Positions 17,630 to 24,324 of a stretch of DNA of 64,000 bases are shown one piece after another. This DNA comes from Chloroflexota bacterium (GTDB lineage: Bacteria; Chloroflexota; Dehalococcoidia; Lucifugimonadales; UBA3495), in contig JAQBVF010000020.1 of assembly GCA_027623675.1 (NCBI GenBank), positions 1-64,000 on the forward strand. Reading direction: 5' to 3'. Each line of letters begins with the position of its first letter. Position 1 is the first letter of the stretch. Under the pieces are notes generated by a model, which saw nothing but the letters and a program-made list of their open reading frames with translations, did no database searches and was not told where the DNA came from. The position numbers were made by a program, and so were the translations under genes.

Positions 17630-18280
17630 CTACTGGAATGTCACGATTGGCGACAGCGGGGCCAGGTCACCACCGTTGAATTGCCCTGGAGTGGTCTTGG
17701 TGAGGATATCCACCAGAGTGCTTGCGTTGAAGGCGGAGATGCTTTCTAAACCCAGGGGCATGGTGCCGGCAGCGCCCTCCCGCAGTTTGAACCTGACCAC
17801 GGCCACGGGACCGCTTCCGGTCATGCCGTCCACGTCGATTATCCCGGCCCAGAGGCGGCCCGGTCCCGGCGAACTGGAGTCGATGAGGGCCTTTCCGGCC
17901 AGCGTTCCCCGCTCCAATTGGGCGAATTCCAACTTGGCCGGGTCAAATGTCAGTATGAACTCCAAACTACCCACATTGCTGGCCCGGGTGGCCAGGATGG
18001 GCACGGAGATCATCTTGGGGGTCGCGACCACCACTGGATCAGGCGCCGCCGTGGCCGTGGGAGCTGCCCTTGGGGTTGCCGTTGGCTTGCCGACCGCCGC
18101 CGGTGTGGGGGTCGAAGACCCGCCCACCCGGTCCGGGCCGCCGTCGCTGCCGCCACCTCCGCCGAGAACTCCCACGGCGAACAGGAGGCCGATCAACAGC
18201 CCTACTCCGGCGATCGACCCAACCACCCATTTCCAACTGGAGGCTAATCCAATGAACGCAACTTCCAACAACCAGCGCAT
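17630..18280 (-). CDS. Membrane-anchored cohesin-domain protein
   Basis: N-terminal TM helix, Gly/Pro/Thr linker, then a cohesin-like beta sandwich (ISVPI...VGSLEFILTFDPAKLEF..LERG...GSGPVAVVRFK). Confidence 0.75.
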   Translation of the reverse strand: MRWLLEVAFIGLASSWKWVVGSIAGVGLLIGLLFAVGVLGGGGGSDGGPDRVGGSSTPTPAAVGKPTATPRAAPTATAAPDPVVVATPKMISVPILATRASNVGSLEFILTFDPAKLEFAQLERGTLAGKALIDSSSPGPGRLWAGIIDVDGMTGSGPVAVVRFKLREGAAGTMPLGLESISAFNASTLVDILTKTTPGQFNGGDLAPLSPIVTFQ

Positions 18281-18335
18281 CTGCTGCTCCCCTAACTCGG
18301 CCGAGCCATGTTTGAGATTATCCGGGCATCTTTTA

Positions 18336-21212
18336 TCATAATGGGCGCGCCATGTTTAAGATTATCCGCGCATCTTCAACAGTAACTTTGCCGTCATCGT
18401 TGACGTCTAGCGATAGGTCTGGCGTCAATAGGTTGGACGCCATCTTCAGGGCCATCAGAGCGTCCATCGCGGTGATCAGGCTGTCCCCTCCGCCGTCGCC
18501 CTGTATCTTGGTGCCCACCTTGAAGTCGGCGCCAACCAACTCCACCGCCAACGGGCCGCTGGCAGAGTGGTTCACCAAGGCATCGGACAGTGTTATCGGG
18601 CTGACAGCCCCCTCGGAGCCAATGACCTGGAATTGCACCACGGCGGCCGTCCCTCCAGGTCCGTCGCCCTGGGTTAGGGCAAAGCCGAACCTGACCTGTC
18701 CCCGGGTATCTGTGTCGTAGCTGAATGAGTTTGGATTCATCCTGGACCCACGTTCCACCGCGACCACCCTCAGAGAATCGGGGTCGTAATTCATGGTGAA
18801 TCCCATGCTGGTGATTCCTTCGGCCTGGTTCAACTCCACCGGCACCCGCACGATGCTGCCGGTGGGCGACACCCGAGATTTGAGGACCAAGGCTGTGCCG
18901 CTTGGGGTGACGACCTTGGGCTGAGGTTCCGTGGCGGGCGGCTCGGGAGTCGGTTTCGTGACCTTGGGAGCAACCGGCCTGGCATCGCTCTCACGGTTCA
19001 CAGTTATGTGATAGGTCCCCACGGCTTTGGCCACCCTGCCGGAGGCTGAGACGGCCAGGGTGTACCAACCGGTCGCCGGGGCCTTCCATTCCAGGGATTG
19101 GTCCAGCCCGAAGTTGGAGGTGCTGAACCCGGCGGCCTGGTTCTCCACCGAGAACCGCACGCCTTCAGCGGTGCCCAAGGTTACGTCTACGGTGTACTTA
19201 GTTCCCGCATCGGCAGGGAAACGGAAGTAGTCATAGTCGTTGGCCGGGCTGATGGCCCCGGCGATGGCGTTGCCAAAGCCGATGCGCGTGCCCTCCTCGG
19301 GCAGATCACTGTGCCGGTCTTGCAGCGTGGTGTCGGGCGTGATCTTGAGCGAGTAGGTGCCGGTGGGTTCCGCCGCCTTCGGCGAGGCTGAAACCTTTAC
19401 GAAGTAGGTCGCCGAGTTTGAGGCGGTCCAGCGGACGATATTACTCTCCCCAAAATTTCTGGCGCCGGCTTCCGGGATGCCGTCCAGGTTGGTTACTTCC
19501 AGTGAGACCGAAGTTGCTGATCCGTAGGTCAGGTCAAATTCGTATTCCACGCCCCGCTCGGCGGGGAAGGAGAAGTAATCCAGGTCGGATTTAGGACTGA
19601 TAGCCCCTTGGTAGATGGTGCCGAAGCTGACCGGGGTGCCGCTTGCGGCTGTGTCCAGATGCCGGTCTTCCAGGCTGGTGTTCGCCGTAACCGTCAACGA
19701 ATAGGTGCCGATGCCCTGGGATGCCTGCGGGGAATAAGACACCACCACATAGAATGTTCCCGTGCTAGCCGCGGTCCAACCCAAGGCGGTGCCCAACCCG
19801 TTGGTGCTGCTCAATGTGTCACCGGCGGCGTTCTCGATCGAGATGACAGCGCCGTTGGCGGTGATCAGGTCCATGCTCACCGAATAGTTGACTCCCCGTT
19901 CCGTTGGGAAGGAGAAATAGTCGCGGTCGGTCTCCGGGCTGATGGCGCCCTGATTGGCGCTGCCAAAGCTGATGGCCGAAGCCAGGGCCGGAATCTCGCC
20001 GTGATGGTCCTGCAGCGTGGTGTCGCTGCTCAGGTTCAGCGAGTAGGTGCCAATAACATTCGGGACCTGAGGCGAGGCCGAAACTACTGCCAGATAGCTG
20101 CCGCTGGCCGGCGCAAGCCACTCCAGGCTGGTCCCCACGCCACCGTTGGAGGCCAGGCTGATCTCGTCGGTGTTAAGGATGGTCAATTCGACGCCGTCTG
20201 CGCTGCCCAGCGACACGTCGAGCATATACTTCACGCCGCGCAGGGCCGGGAACGAGAAGTAGTCCCGGTCGTCGGCGGGGCTGATGGACCCCTGGTGGGC
20301 ATTGCCGAAGCTGATCACCGTTGCTCCGGCGATGGTCTGGGAATGCTGGTCCATGAGGTTAGTTTCGGCGTTCAGCTTGATCGCGTAGGTGCCGTTGGAG
20401 TCCCGCACCCGGCTGGTGCCGGTAACCGAGATGTAATAGGTATTGTCGCTGGGAGCGATCCAATCCAGGGTGTTGCCGATGCCGTCGCTGGTCTTTTCCA
20501 AGCCGTCGAAGGGAGACCGGATGGCAATCTCGACGCCCTCTGAGGTGCCCAGATCAACCTCCACGTTGTACCTCACGCCGCGCCGTGCCTGAAACGAGAA
20601 GTAATCGTAGTCGTCGCCGCCGTCCACGGTGTTGGCCAGCTTGGGCTGGTTGCTCCAAGGGCTGATGGCTCCTTGGTAGATGTTGCCCGGCGATATCTGG
20701 GTGGCCCCGTTCCGGCCTTCGGAATGGCGGTCAATGAAACGCGTGTCCTCAAATCCGCTTAGTGTGTAATCACCGAGGTAGAAGGAGTCGTCGAAGTTGT
20801 TGATGGTGCCCGACACTTCTACGTAATAGGTGTCGGTGGTGCGGGCGGTCCAATTTACGGTCTTCCGGCCGCCTTCGATGCTCAAGTCCTGACCCGGAGA
20901 CCCGCCGTTGCCTCGGGCTAGAGAATTAATGATGGCGATATTGGCGGCCACCACCGTGGTCTCGTCCAAAACAAAGGTATATTGGACACCGCGCTGGGCC
21001 TGGAAGGAGAAATAGTCAACGTCGAAGAGGATGTCAGATGGGTCGATTACCCCGGCGACGGCGCCAGCGCCGATCTTGATGCTGGTTGAAGTGAACCGGT
21101 AATCGCCGTGGTCGTCGTCGGCGTAGGCAGGGTATTGGCTGGAGAAGAAAGCCGCCACAATGATCGTTAGCAGCACCAGCGTCATCGTCAGCAGATGTGT
21201 TGATTTACGCAT
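18336..21212 (-). CDS. Secreted protein with six PPC-like repeats, a cohesin domain and a C-terminal dockerin
   Basis: Signal peptide (PAYA|D); six D-x-H...GAISP..D.DYFSF repeats; Pro-rich linker; cohesin (VRVPVEL...MGFTMNYDPDSLRV); dockerin GD..GD..ITAMDALMALKM...DVNDDGKVTVEDARIIL. Confidence 0.8.
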   Translation of the reverse strand: MRKSTHLLTMTLVLLTIIVAAFFSSQYPAYADDDHGDYRFTSTSIKIGAGAVAGVIDPSDILFDVDYFSFQAQRGVQYTFVLDETTVVAANIAIINSLARGNGGSPGQDLSIEGGRKTVNWTARTTDTYYVEVSGTINNFDDSFYLGDYTLSGFEDTRFIDRHSEGRNGATQISPGNIYQGAISPWSNQPKLANTVDGGDDYDYFSFQARRGVRYNVEVDLGTSEGVEIAIRSPFDGLEKTSDGIGNTLDWIAPSDNTYYISVTGTSRVRDSNGTYAIKLNAETNLMDQHSQTIAGATVISFGNAHQGSISPADDRDYFSFPALRGVKYMLDVSLGSADGVELTILNTDEISLASNGGVGTSLEWLAPASGSYLAVVSASPQVPNVIGTYSLNLSSDTTLQDHHGEIPALASAISFGSANQGAISPETDRDYFSFPTERGVNYSVSMDLITANGAVISIENAAGDTLSSTNGLGTALGWTAASTGTFYVVVSYSPQASQGIGTYSLTVTANTSLEDRHLDTAASGTPVSFGTIYQGAISPKSDLDYFSFPAERGVEYEFDLTYGSATSVSLEVTNLDGIPEAGARNFGESNIVRWTASNSATYFVKVSASPKAAEPTGTYSLKITPDTTLQDRHSDLPEEGTRIGFGNAIAGAISPANDYDYFRFPADAGTKYTVDVTLGTAEGVRFSVENQAAGFSTSNFGLDQSLEWKAPATGWYTLAVSASGRVAKAVGTYHITVNRESDARPVAPKVTKPTPEPPATEPQPKVVTPSGTALVLKSRVSPTGSIVRVPVELNQAEGITSMGFTMNYDPDSLRVVAVERGSRMNPNSFSYDTDTRGQVRFGFALTQGDGPGGTAAVVQFQVIGSEGAVSPITLSDALVNHSASGPLAVELVGADFKVGTKIQGDGGGDSLITAMDALMALKMASNLLTPDLSLDVNDDGKVTVEDARIILNMARPL

Positions 21213-21496
21213 ACCCCTACTCCCTTCCTCCGCCACCTCGCGCTCACCACGGGGGCTGCTCCACGGTCATCTTTGGACACGCGGGACCGAATGAGCGGGC
21301 GTCCGCACACTCCCGCAGACGCGGTCAGGAGAGCAGACGTTCCGCTGTTAGCATTGAAATTTGGTTGCATTTTAAGATTAATATTAAATTATAGTCAATT
21401 GAATACGACACCAGATAACACGATAATCACGCGCCACCACAAGAATGGCGAAGGATGATTGGAAGGTATTGGCGTCTGGCGGCGGGGGTGAACCGG

Positions 21497-23017
21497 TCAG
21501 GGCGCGTAGATGTCCGTTTGGGGGTAAAAAGCGTACCAGCCGAACCAGTATGCCTCCCGGCTGGGCAGCCGGTCCAAGGACCGGGCGGCGCCGTCCAGGC
21601 TGACCAGAGCGTCGTCCTCAGCCCGCCATTCCACGCCATCCTCGTCGGTCACAACCATCATCCGGCCCGGCCCGGTCCGGGCCGGAGTGAACACATGGTT
21701 ACCCCGGCCGTAGGCCCTAACCCCGCCGCCGGACCCAGGCGATAGGACGACCACGTTCTGGCCGCCCAATTCGTCGTTGAGCGCGGTTGGCGAGGCGAAT
21801 ACCGACAGTGGGTACGCCCTGGCTTCATCGCCGACAACGAGGCCAAAAACCGGTTCTTTGGTTTCCAACTCGGCGCTGCGCAGCGGGACCGGGAACATGG
21901 TCGTTGTCTGGTTGCGGTAGGCGAAGTAAGCGGAGTCGTTCTGGGACTCGGGGGAATAACTTTCTGCCGGATACCTGCCGGTTTCCGCGTTCAAGACGGT
22001 GGTGTCCGGGTGTTCCGCCACCCAGTCGGCCCAAAACGTGAGGGTCATGGGCAGCACCTCCAGTTCCAAGCCGCTGCCGACCAGCGGGCCAACCGCGGGC
22101 ACGCCCCGAAATTGCTGCCACAGCGTCTCCGTCTTGCGGTCGTACATCAGTTTGTTGCTGCGGTAGAGGAAGCCGGAGGTGCCGAACTCCACCCTTTCGC
22201 CGTTGATCTCCGTGGAATACACGATTCCAGAGCCGCAGAGGGTTCAATAAGCCAGGGCGAAGGGCACGCCTCCCAGGATGTCGTTGGCCATCTCGTGACG
22301 GTTCAAGATGCGTAGTGGATAGGCCCGGTGCTCGCCGTTGATGGACACTCCGAAGACCCGGTCGCCCGGGAGCAGGTAATCGGCGTCTTCCGCAGAGACC
22401 ACGGGTGGGTCGCTCAGGTCGGGGATGCCGTCCTTGGCCACACCTCCCCAAACGATCTCTTCCAGCCGGATATCCGATCTCACGCCGTCATAGATGAAGC
22501 CGCCCAGACCGGGGTCCACGATGGCGTATAACCGGCCCTTCCATCCGGCGAACCCCGGCGGCGGCCGTACCTGAGGGTTGTTGCCCAGCCACTCGACCCA
22601 CCACTGCCACTCATTCTGCTCTGGCGGGAAGACCATCACGTCTTCCGGCGGCACGTTGTCTTTGAGCCGGGACAGGAAGGAGGTCATGTTGATGATGGCT
22701 TCATCGTCGTTCTGAAAGCGGAGGAACTCCAGCAGCACCGGGATGTAGGTCTGGTTCCCGGAATAAGCCATCTTGCGGGCGACCTTGGCCAGGGGCAGCT
22801 CCAGGGAGGCCAGCATCAACCCGGTAGGGTCGTCGGGCAGTCCGGTCAGGTCCACCTCTCCGGGCATCGGCTCGATGGGTATCACGGCCCCGGGCCCGGA
22901 TGTGGCCGGGACGGGCGTGCCGCCTCCGCCCGGCGAACAGGCCGCCACCAAAAGCGCCGCAGCCGTCGCCGCCAGCCAGACTGGCCGCCGATGTTTTGGC
23001 TTATGAGACAACCGCAA
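21497..23017 (-). CDS. DUF3179-domain lipoprotein, selenoprotein (U-T-L-C)
   Basis: ORFs 22244..23527 and 21497..22222 are in one frame, separated by TGA 22246-22244 (LAY-U-TLCGSG, where DUF3179 has YCPLCGSG). GGVAKDGIP, RAYP, HEMAND, FGTSGFLYRSNKLMYDR and lipobox VAAC are present. Confidence 0.85.
22208..22232 (-). promoter_or_regulatory. Bacterial SECIS-like hairpin
   Basis: Minus strand CTC-TGGAAT[CGTGT]ATTCCA-CG-GAG; the loop starts 20 nt after the TGA. Confidence 0.7.
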
Positions 23018-23145
23018 TGGGCCGGACCTCTCTAAGCGTTCAGCTTTGGGGCTGCACCGGGAGGATACGAGTCGTGACGCCGGGCGCCCGATACGTTTGT
23101 TCGATGCATGGGGCGGTGAAAGGATGCGCCTGGTCGGGGGCGGTA

Positions 23146-24324
23146 CTACTGGGACTCGCGGAATAACTCGCGGCCGATGAGCATGCGGCGTATCTCGCTG
23201 GTGCCGGCGCCGATCTCGTACAGTTTGGCGTCCCGCAACAGGCGGCCGGTGGGCGACTCGTTGACGTAGCCGATGCCGCCCAGGGTTTGCACGGCTTGCA
23301 GGGCGGTCTGCGTGGCCTGTTCGGCACTGAAGAGCAGGCAACCGGCGGCGTCTTTGCGGCTGCTCTCGCCCCGGTCGGCAGCCCGGGCCACGGCGTAGAC
23401 GTAGGACTGGCACGCGGAGATGGCGGTGTACATATCGGCCAACTTGGCCTGGACCAACTGGAACTCTCCGATGGGCTGGCCGAATTGTTCGCGTTGGTGG
23501 ACGTAGGGCAAAACCGCGTCCAAACATGATTGCATGATGCCCAGTGGGCCGCCGGCCAGCACCAGCCGCTCGAAGTCCAGGCCGCTCATCAGCACCCGGA
23601 CACCGTGGTCAACCTCGCCCAGCACGTTCTCCTCGGGCACCTCGCAGTCCTGAAAGACCAACTCGGACGTGCTTGAGCCGCGCATCCCGAGCTTGTTCAG
23701 CTTGGGCGACGCCCGGAACCCGGCAAACGCCTTCTCGACGAGAAAGGCGGTTATGCCGTGGGAGCCGGCCTGGGGGTTGGTCTTGCCGTAGACCACCAGA
23801 GTGTCGGCTTCGGGTCCGTTGGTGATCCACATCTTGCTGCCGTTCAGAACGTAGCGGCCGCCCTTCTTCTCGGCGCGGAGGGCCATGCTGATCACGTCGG
23901 AGCCGGCCTCAGCCTCGCTCATCGCCAGCGCGCCGACATGCTCCCCGGATATCAACTTGGGCAGATAACGCCGTTTCTGGCCGTCGTTGCCGTTGCGGAA
24001 GATCTGGTTGACGCACAGGTTGGAGTGGGCGCCGTAGCTCAGGCCCACGCTGGCCGACCCGCGGGAAATCTCCTCCATGGCGATGGTGTGGGCCAGATAG
24101 CCAAGGCCCGCGCCGCCGTACTCCTCGGAGACGGTGATGCCCAAAAGCCCCAACTCGCCCAGCTTGGGCCACAGGTCCCGGGGAAATTGGTCGGTCTGGT
24201 CGATCTCCGCGGCTCTGGGTGCGATCTCCTGAAAGGAGAAACTTCGCACCGTATCCCGGATGATGTCGATGGTCTCACCCAGCGAGTGGTCCAAAGCGCT
24301 GTACAGCGGCCGTCGGGATGTCAT
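23146..24324 (-). CDS. ivd: Isovaleryl-CoA dehydrogenase
   Basis: [28 protein letters not shown] and [19 protein letters not shown]. Confidence 0.88.

Follow-up and report, generated by a model that had tools for sequence, protein, structure and literature searches.

How is a large secreted protein held on the outside of a cell that appears to have no peptidoglycan? Two adjacent genes on contig JAQBVF010000020.1 of assembly GCA_027623675.1, a 91% complete genome of the SAR202 group (Dehalococcoidia), raise this question; the window analyzed here is the first 64,000 nucleotides of that contig. Gene 1 (P0001) encodes a protein with a predicted signal peptide, six PPC-like repeats, a cohesin (Coh1) and a C-terminal dockerin, and gene 2 (P0002) encodes a small protein in which a predicted membrane helix carries a single cohesin (Coh2). 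Judging from comparisons with relatives and from known systems, the two genes probably form a surface-display cassette in which the helix-1 face of the dockerin clips the secreted protein onto the membrane cohesin. The six-repeat protein would be exported with the dockerin at its end, the calcium-binding dockerin would clip by its first-helix face onto anchored Coh2, and a row of probably ligand-binding domains would thereby be held outside the cell, with Coh1 as a second, less constrained socket beside the dockerin. Neither mraY nor murG was found in this 91% complete genome, which agrees with the description of a cultured SAR202 strain that has no peptidoglycan genes and shows a surface-layer (S-layer)-like outer layer (PMC10444878, available text).

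Domain anatomy of the two proteins

The initial annotation had described two adjacent co-oriented genes, a signal peptide in the first product, a membrane anchor in the second, six PPC-like repeats, a cohesin in each protein and no glycoside hydrolase or protease domain, and this anatomy held throughout. Both open reading frames (ORFs) were found as described (Table 1), and hydropathy gave a single N-terminal hydrophobic segment in each protein, the signal cleavage site being read from the sequence. Against a cut-off of 24.1 bits, Cohesin PF00963 scored 55.8 bits in gene 1 (E 7e-15) and 29.9 bits in gene 2 (E 7e-7), and PPC PF04151 scored 37.9 bits in gene 1 (cut-off 25.9, E 3e-9). Neither protein matched a catalytic Pfam family. 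The AlphaFold2 model of the Coh1-dockerin tandem reached a predicted local distance difference test (pLDDT) score of 89.5 and a predicted template modeling (pTM) score of 0.83, and that of the gene 2 product a pLDDT of 86.8. Coh1 has the full cohesin fold, with the Archaeoglobus fulgidus structure 2xdh as its best Foldseek match (E 3e-12), and the Coh2 model superposes on residues 17-156 of the same structure (Z 16.5, root-mean-square deviation 1.7, 113 residues aligned). The alignment of Coh2 to solved cohesins begins only at about their residue 16-20 and runs 11 residues beyond their end, and the proline of this tail, P211, is invariant in both alignments. It is likely, from the alignments and the model, that the tail strand replaces strand 1, making Coh2 a circular permutation.

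Two EF-hand-like loops, each followed by a helix, are present in the dockerin in both the alignment and the AlphaFold2 model. The profile check gave a divided answer: the window copy falls just below the Dockerin_1 PF00404 cut-off (21.6 bits versus 22.9; E 3e-4 for the isolated domain), while the orthologous dockerin exceeds it in most relatives. Loop 1 had been called degenerate, a term that goes too far, only one of its positions being altered. In an alignment of 121 homologues, D906, D910, D917, D936, D940 and D947 are kept in 117-120, and 119 have Asn (67) or Asp (52) at EF-position 3 of loop 1 (one further row is gapped); Gly908 is private to this genome. Its codon, GGA (18489-18491), is two bases off the GAC, GAT or AAC of four close relatives, and may reflect either real variation or a mistake in the assembly. 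The dockerin is presumably calcium-dependent. The symmetric recognition residues of a dual binding mode are absent: at positions 10/11, repeat 1 has mostly Ala/Leu, and repeat 2 varies.

Docking on the membrane anchor

To place the pair among its relatives, 101 genomes sampled from the host family were searched with gene 1 at a cut-off of E < 1e-100, and 38 of them matched. The named homologues are Chloroflexi and SAR202-cluster proteins. Thirty loci were fetched, a synteny check that the initial annotation had proposed: gene 2 directly follows gene 1, co-oriented, in 29, and the 30th stops at a contig edge in a genome that has the pair on another contig. Outside the family, a strong cohesin-dockerin tandem was seen in 4 of 300 other genomes of the class, with a Coh2-type gene downstream in all four, and one further case came from outside the class in a 401-genome sample of the phylum. 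A profile of the tandem retrieved 505 representatives at E < 1e-30, and a tandem search in the genome collection gave 16 distant loci, none of them useful.

The two cohesins were then compared in 27 paired loci, where they have diverged to a like extent (mean identity 43% for Coh1 and 46% for Coh2). The docking face was mapped by alignment to the cohesin of CipA, where it takes in Asn37, Asp39, Gly123 and Ala125 together with further positions. These four named residues contact the Ser/Thr motif of the dockerin in CipA, according to the available text of PMC5772552. In Coh2, face and core are conserved to the same degree (entropy 0.80 versus 0.81), and the face has four invariant residues; S105, E107, W144 and D191 do not vary in these loci. 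The Coh1 face is far more variable than its core (1.68 versus 0.86) and than the Coh2 face (p 0.004). On the side of the dockerin, entropy is lower in helix 1 (1.17) than in helix 3 (1.71).

A residue pair across the two genes points the same way. It was first noticed in three distant cassettes, where Glu107 of Coh2 is replaced by His when dockerin position 915 becomes Glu, and more loci were then gathered: 87 cohesin matches in dockerin-free ORFs, reduced to 72 non-identical ones with a complete tandem upstream. His107 occurs with Glu915 in 21/21 cassettes and non-His with non-Glu in 51/51; of the 22,088 state pairs between Coh2 (residues 104-216) and the dockerin, no other is perfect. A control of Coh2 against Coh1 gave no perfect pair in 73,543, with a peak of 0.93. 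Positions 107 and 915 correspond to the contact of Asp39 with the Ser-Thr motif in CipA (PMC5772552, available text).

Several points weigh against docking as proposed here. The link between positions 107 and 915 amounts to just 3-4 changes on the tree, significance is out of reach for the sign test (p 0.5-1), and all of these switches fall outside the clade of the window. The pair was spotted by eye before it was counted, and the alignment used as seed for the metagenome search was rich in His. One locus left out of the count, L174, which has its anchor upstream, combines His107 with Pro/Thr915. The window dockerin itself scores below the Pfam threshold, and one of its calcium-ligand positions is occupied by Gly. 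Even so, the claim that the dockerin docks on the membrane cohesin draws together synteny, face conservation, the compensatory pair and a precedent, the binding of A. fulgidus dockerin 2375 to cohesin 2376 (PMC9705933, available text), and we consider the support for helix-1 docking on the anchor good but indirect. Closure of the dockerin on its own Coh1 is unlikely, given that merely five residues separate V899 of Coh1 from G905 of the dockerin, a fixed distance at which intrachain binding is not expected.

In L174 (6766-7857, minus strand), a cytoplasmic coiled-coil-like domain, placed before the membrane helix, is fused to the anchor cohesin, which lies upstream of the cargo; this may be a signaling variant.

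The role of Coh1

If the dockerin occupies Coh2, Coh1 would be left as a free socket. An anchored chain, in which the first subunit sits on the anchor via helix 1 and later subunits dock on the Coh1 before them, probably by the helix-3 face, is compatible with tethering through a single contact, and we hold it as a tentative possibility. Two sockets are encoded for one plug: among 35 pair-bearing genomes, this dockerin is the sole PF00404 match (E 0.1 or better) in 32, including all seven single-contig ones, a count that relies on a profile that can miss divergent dockerins and did miss one, G079:C96, later found by another search. The central face of Coh1 is more conserved than its opposite sheet (1.26 versus 2.14, p 0.015; 2.0 versus 2.82 in 194 tandems). 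It is nonetheless much less conserved than the Coh2 face and has no invariant residue, and G843 of Coh1 changes to Asp/Glu in 4/27 loci.

Covariation between Coh1 and the dockerin seemed at first to favor the chain. The top pair by mutual information was 804-945 (z 6.8), and 802-945 (phi 0.90) was the best of 25,784 Coh1-dockerin pairs; both lie at canonical contacts, the equivalents of Asp39 and Asn37 with Ser45 in the helix-3 mode. Tree-aware tests lowered their ranks to ~885 and ~67 of 5,375 pairs, with a set-level p of 0.13 and p 0.25 for five independent pairs, and the 804-945 signal was dropped as proof of docking on Coh1. The covariation and face-conservation data sets overlap and are not independent.

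Some loci have two tandems for one anchor (L170, L171, L190-L192, L216), as a chain would allow, and designer cellulosomes have paired A. fulgidus cohesin 2375 with dockerin 2375 (PMC3520109, available text). The ScaH dockerin of Ruminococcus flavefaciens recognized both its own cohesin and the anchor ScaE, although its self-binding was very weak on arrays (PMC5301203, available text). Gene spacing argues the other way. The spacer is 11 bp or less in 23/27 paired loci (55 bp here), and such tight spacing would give near-equal output of the two proteins and not many subunits per anchor. A terminator-like site between or after the two genes was not found (0 versus 3.7 expected), nor was a conserved intergenic hairpin in the paired loci, so there is no sign of a device for making more subunit than anchor. 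In a sharper form of the chain, which strikes us as rather unlikely, the two pseudo-symmetric faces of the dockerin would have divided the work, helix 1 recognizing the permuted anchor cohesin as the base and helix 3 the cohesin of the subunit itself for elongation. If true, it would give a polar, calcium-dependent, pilus-like chain, made from cohesin-dockerin clips alone and with swappable binding domains, in wall-less Dehalococcoidia, which dockerin-only cargo could cap in some lineages.

The same spacing is compatible with a 1:1 ratio, and with Coh1 acting mainly as a rigid spacer or buttress for the dockerin, similar to an X-module, with a face that is a relaxed relic and with one subunit per anchor. 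This, too, may be so, short of being probable. The five-residue junction is found in 206/249 tandems, a fixed length in keeping with a structural role; the pTM of the tandem model extends over both domains; R780, in the first strand of Coh1, is kept in 113/121; and the Coh1 face drifts between clades. Against this, Coh1 has a full cohesin fold, and in both sets its face has still varied less than the opposite sheet. Moreover, six loci encode dockerin-only cargo in which the same dockerin has no cohesin before it, indicating that Coh1 is not needed to support the dockerin, a point in favor of the chain.

Alternatively, Coh1 could be an adaptor socket for another dockerin protein, whether encoded on contig C39, divergent enough to escape detection, or made by another cell. 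The whole genome has five cohesin matches in four ORFs, at most two per protein, and two dockerins, both on proteins in which no catalytic Pfam family matched; this genome, 91% complete, yielded neither a multi-cohesin scaffoldin nor a dockerin-tagged enzyme. Listing the other dockerin proteins, as the initial annotation had advised, thus turned up one, in a second, unrelated pair of like logic at G000:C39:50871-54340 (minus strand; L019, L020). It encodes a 583-aa secreted protein with a cohesin and a divergent dockerin, followed by a 569-aa two-cohesin protein with a C-terminal membrane helix. This second pair and the several dockerin proteins per anchor in relatives of other orders would suit an adaptor. 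The C39 protein, however, is matched in only 6/101 family genomes (close matches in 2/7 of the same genus) compared with 38/101 for the cassette, and its dockerin differs in the recognition residues, lies beside an anchor gene of its own and is missed by the family dockerin profile. Together with the lack of a dockerin-tagged enzyme, this makes an adaptor improbable.

Several cargo proteins, tandem or dockerin-only, surround one or two anchors in L173, L190-L197, L216, L170 and L171, with dockerins near-identical within clusters; such clusters would be the most suitable natural setting in which to look for adaptor or capping functions. Other dockerins also occur in the family. Cassette-free genomes of the family (L054, L055, L064, L071, L077) encode a different secreted protein of ~420 aa that ends in another dockerin type, and the gene beside three of these is, by its motifs, presumably polyprenyl-synthetase-like. 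In two pair-bearing genomes (L062 in G085, L069 in G008), a beta-propeller protein, presumably sugar-dehydrogenase-like, ends in a dockerin and is a possible enzyme cargo.

Repeats, cargo and neighboring features

The repeat profile counted exactly six repeats in gene 1, with 36-47% identity to repeat 4, and found them in no other protein of the genome. Their D-x-H and D-x-D-Y-F motifs are invariant, and such acidic motifs suggest candidate calcium sites. The nearest solved relatives are the collagen-binding domains of clostridial collagenases (5iku best, E 6e-5). Among 117 proteins, the number of repeats is 6 in 79, 7 in 22, 8 in 13 and 9 in 3.

In relatives, other domains take the place of the repeats. 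Among 61 tandem proteins scanned, of 150 matches listed, the cargo included PA14, laminin-G, F5/8, CBM96, PKD, TSP3, FG-GAP and unknown domains, and none of the 61 had a catalytic hydrolase or peptidase domain. The anchors vary as well, being membrane helices or lipoprotein-like signals. The cohesin-dockerin tandem is, on this sequence evidence, a mobile tail on exchangeable cargo. Such a range of cargo suggests that glycans or surfaces are bound, and by analogy with it, the repeats would serve in adhesion or capture.

The cargo also bears on whether the secreted protein could instead be the subunit of a structural coat, an S-layer-like lattice fastened by the anchored cohesin. The missing mraY and murG, the S-layer-like layer of the cultured SAR202 strain (PMC10444878, available text) and the packing that tandem acidic-motif beta-sandwich repeats might allow are what such a coat would lead one to expect. 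Yet the cassette is patchy (38/101 family genomes), the repeats vary from 6 to 9, and wholly different cargo rides on the same tail in relatives, a combination that fits an accessory adhesin better than an essential lattice; we regard a coat as highly improbable.

One paralogous cassette (L084:4815-11351, in G047:C173) has TolB/beta-propeller-like cargo. Its tandem carries a long C-terminal extension, apparently with two frameshifts in the assembly, and is followed by a lipoprotein-anchored His107 cohesin.

The features of the locus are collected in Table 1. Gene 1 could also start at an in-frame GTG at 21236. Flanking DUF3179, HbpS-like and acyl-CoA genes were considered as parts of the cassette and rejected; they are common to some relatives but not to G025, G045 and G091. 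The DUF3179 region upstream (21497-23500, minus strand) is apparently split over two frames: ORF 21497-22222 covers DUF3179 profile positions 74-292, and similar sequence goes on in ORF 22244-23527. The same two-ORF split is seen in L092 and L093.

Table 1. Features of the cohesin-dockerin locus, in positions of the window.
Feature	Position	Strand	Basis
Gene 1 (P0001), 958 aa, repeats then cohesin-dockerin tandem	18336..21212	-	ORF, Pfam
Predicted signal peptide, aa 1-31, ending ...PAYA	21120..21212	-	sole hydrophobic segment, peak 2.31
Six PPC/collagen-binding-domain-like repeats, aa 32-742	18987..21119	-	Pfam, repeat profile
Pro/Thr linker, aa 743-772	18897..18986	-	sequence
Own cohesin Coh1, aa 773-900	18513..18896	-	PF00963 E 7e-15; model; Foldseek best 2xdh
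Dockerin, aa 905-958, two EF-hand-like loops and two helices	18339..18500	-	Pfam, alignment, model
Spacer of 55 bp between the genes, with Shine-Dalgarno-like GGGGAG before gene 2	18281..18335	-	sequence
Gene 2 (P0002), 216 aa, membrane-anchored cohesin	17630..18280	-	ORF, Pfam
Predicted transmembrane helix, aa 16-39	18164..18235	-	hydropathy peak 2.35; helix in model
Gly/Pro/Ala/Thr stalk, aa 40-89	18014..18163	-	sequence; low pLDDT
Anchor cohesin Coh2, aa 90-205, without strand 1	17666..18013	-	alignments; structural match to 2xdh
Extra C-terminal strand, P-x-x-x-F	17633..17665	-	P211 invariant; strand 212-215 in pLDDT 98 block
Sigma-70-like promoter match, 10/12, upstream of gene 1	21369..21398	-	weak: 3 sites in region vs 1.1 expected

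Comparison with known systems

Non-cellulosomal cohesin-dockerin pairs are known or proposed in A. fulgidus, anaerobic methanotrophic (ANME) archaea and Planctomycetes (PMC9705933, PMC6394049, PMC9012536, PMC6461901, PMC12484212, available texts). The closest parallel is ORF2375/ORF2376 of A. fulgidus, likewise adjacent genes that encode one cohesin plus dockerin and one single cohesin, with no enzymes. Among solved structures, 2xdh matches the two cohesins of the present pair best, in sequence (E 3e-19 and 6e-18) as well as in fold, and the A. fulgidus dockerin has been used with both cohesins in engineered systems (PMC9705933, PMC3520109, available texts). The present pair differs in being bacterial, in carrying six to nine PPC repeats as cargo and in having an anchor cohesin without strand 1 and with an added C-terminal strand.

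In R. flavefaciens, the proteins ScaH, ScaF and ScaI (cohesin-dockerin, or leucine-rich repeats followed by cohesin-dockerin) and CttA dock on the single-cohesin anchor ScaE, much as proposed here; one of these cohesin-dockerin proteins has repeat cargo, and the ScaH dockerin recognizes its own cohesin (PMC5301203, available text). Those modules, however, are of type III and belong to a cellulosome that counts 223 dockerin ORFs and uses a sortase/LPXTG anchor. The modules here are nearer to type I and to those of archaea, anchoring is by a membrane helix or a lipoprotein, and no enzyme with a dockerin tag was found in the genome. With the Clostridium thermocellum cellulosome of CipA and OlpA, OlpC or SdbA, the cassette shares the cohesin fold, the dockerin motif and a monovalent surface anchor, but not the multi-cohesin scaffoldin, cellulose-binding module or glycoside hydrolases, and its dockerin is asymmetric and lacks the Ser-Thr motif. 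Compared with the X-module-dockerin dyads of CipA, ScaB and CttA, the junction here is fixed at five residues, yet the dockerin stands alone in six loci; no X-dockerin chain stood among the Foldseek matches listed, which does not count as evidence of absence. The clostridial collagenases share the fold family of the repeats and acidic N-terminal motifs, but the similarity is weak and no protease domain is present here. The aromatic collagen-binding strip is apparently not conserved in these repeats. The "planctosome" of freshwater Planctomycetes and the ANME proteins are also non-cellulosomal surface assemblies proposed from genomes; as described in the available texts (PMC6461901, PMC9012536), they include peptidases, ABC binding proteins, S-layer domains or multi-cohesin proteins, unlike the closed two-gene set found here.

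Significance

We found no literature on cohesins and dockerins in Dehalococcoidia in a search of largely open-access papers; the papers listed for Chloroflexota were on other topics, and among those listed for SAR202 one on Planctomycetes surfaced. A natural cohesin-dockerin self-polymer was not found described in the literature searched, where only ScaH was relevant.

The locus is, in our view, a real and conserved surface-display cassette of the Archaeoglobus/ScaH type, for which self-polymerization is an attractive possibility. As a closed two-part system, usually with one dockerin and two cohesins, it would make the native role of non-cellulosomal pairs testable with three small domains. 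The alternatives Glu107/Ala915 and His107/Glu915 may represent a natural specificity switch, of use for orthogonal protein clips. The chain model, if true, would make the cassette a cohesin-dockerin polymer that occurs in nature. To SAR202, bacteria that abound in the ocean and whose surface biology is little known, the cassette would give a way of displaying large cargo without sortase or S-layer homology (SLH) anchors in a cell without peptidoglycan genes.

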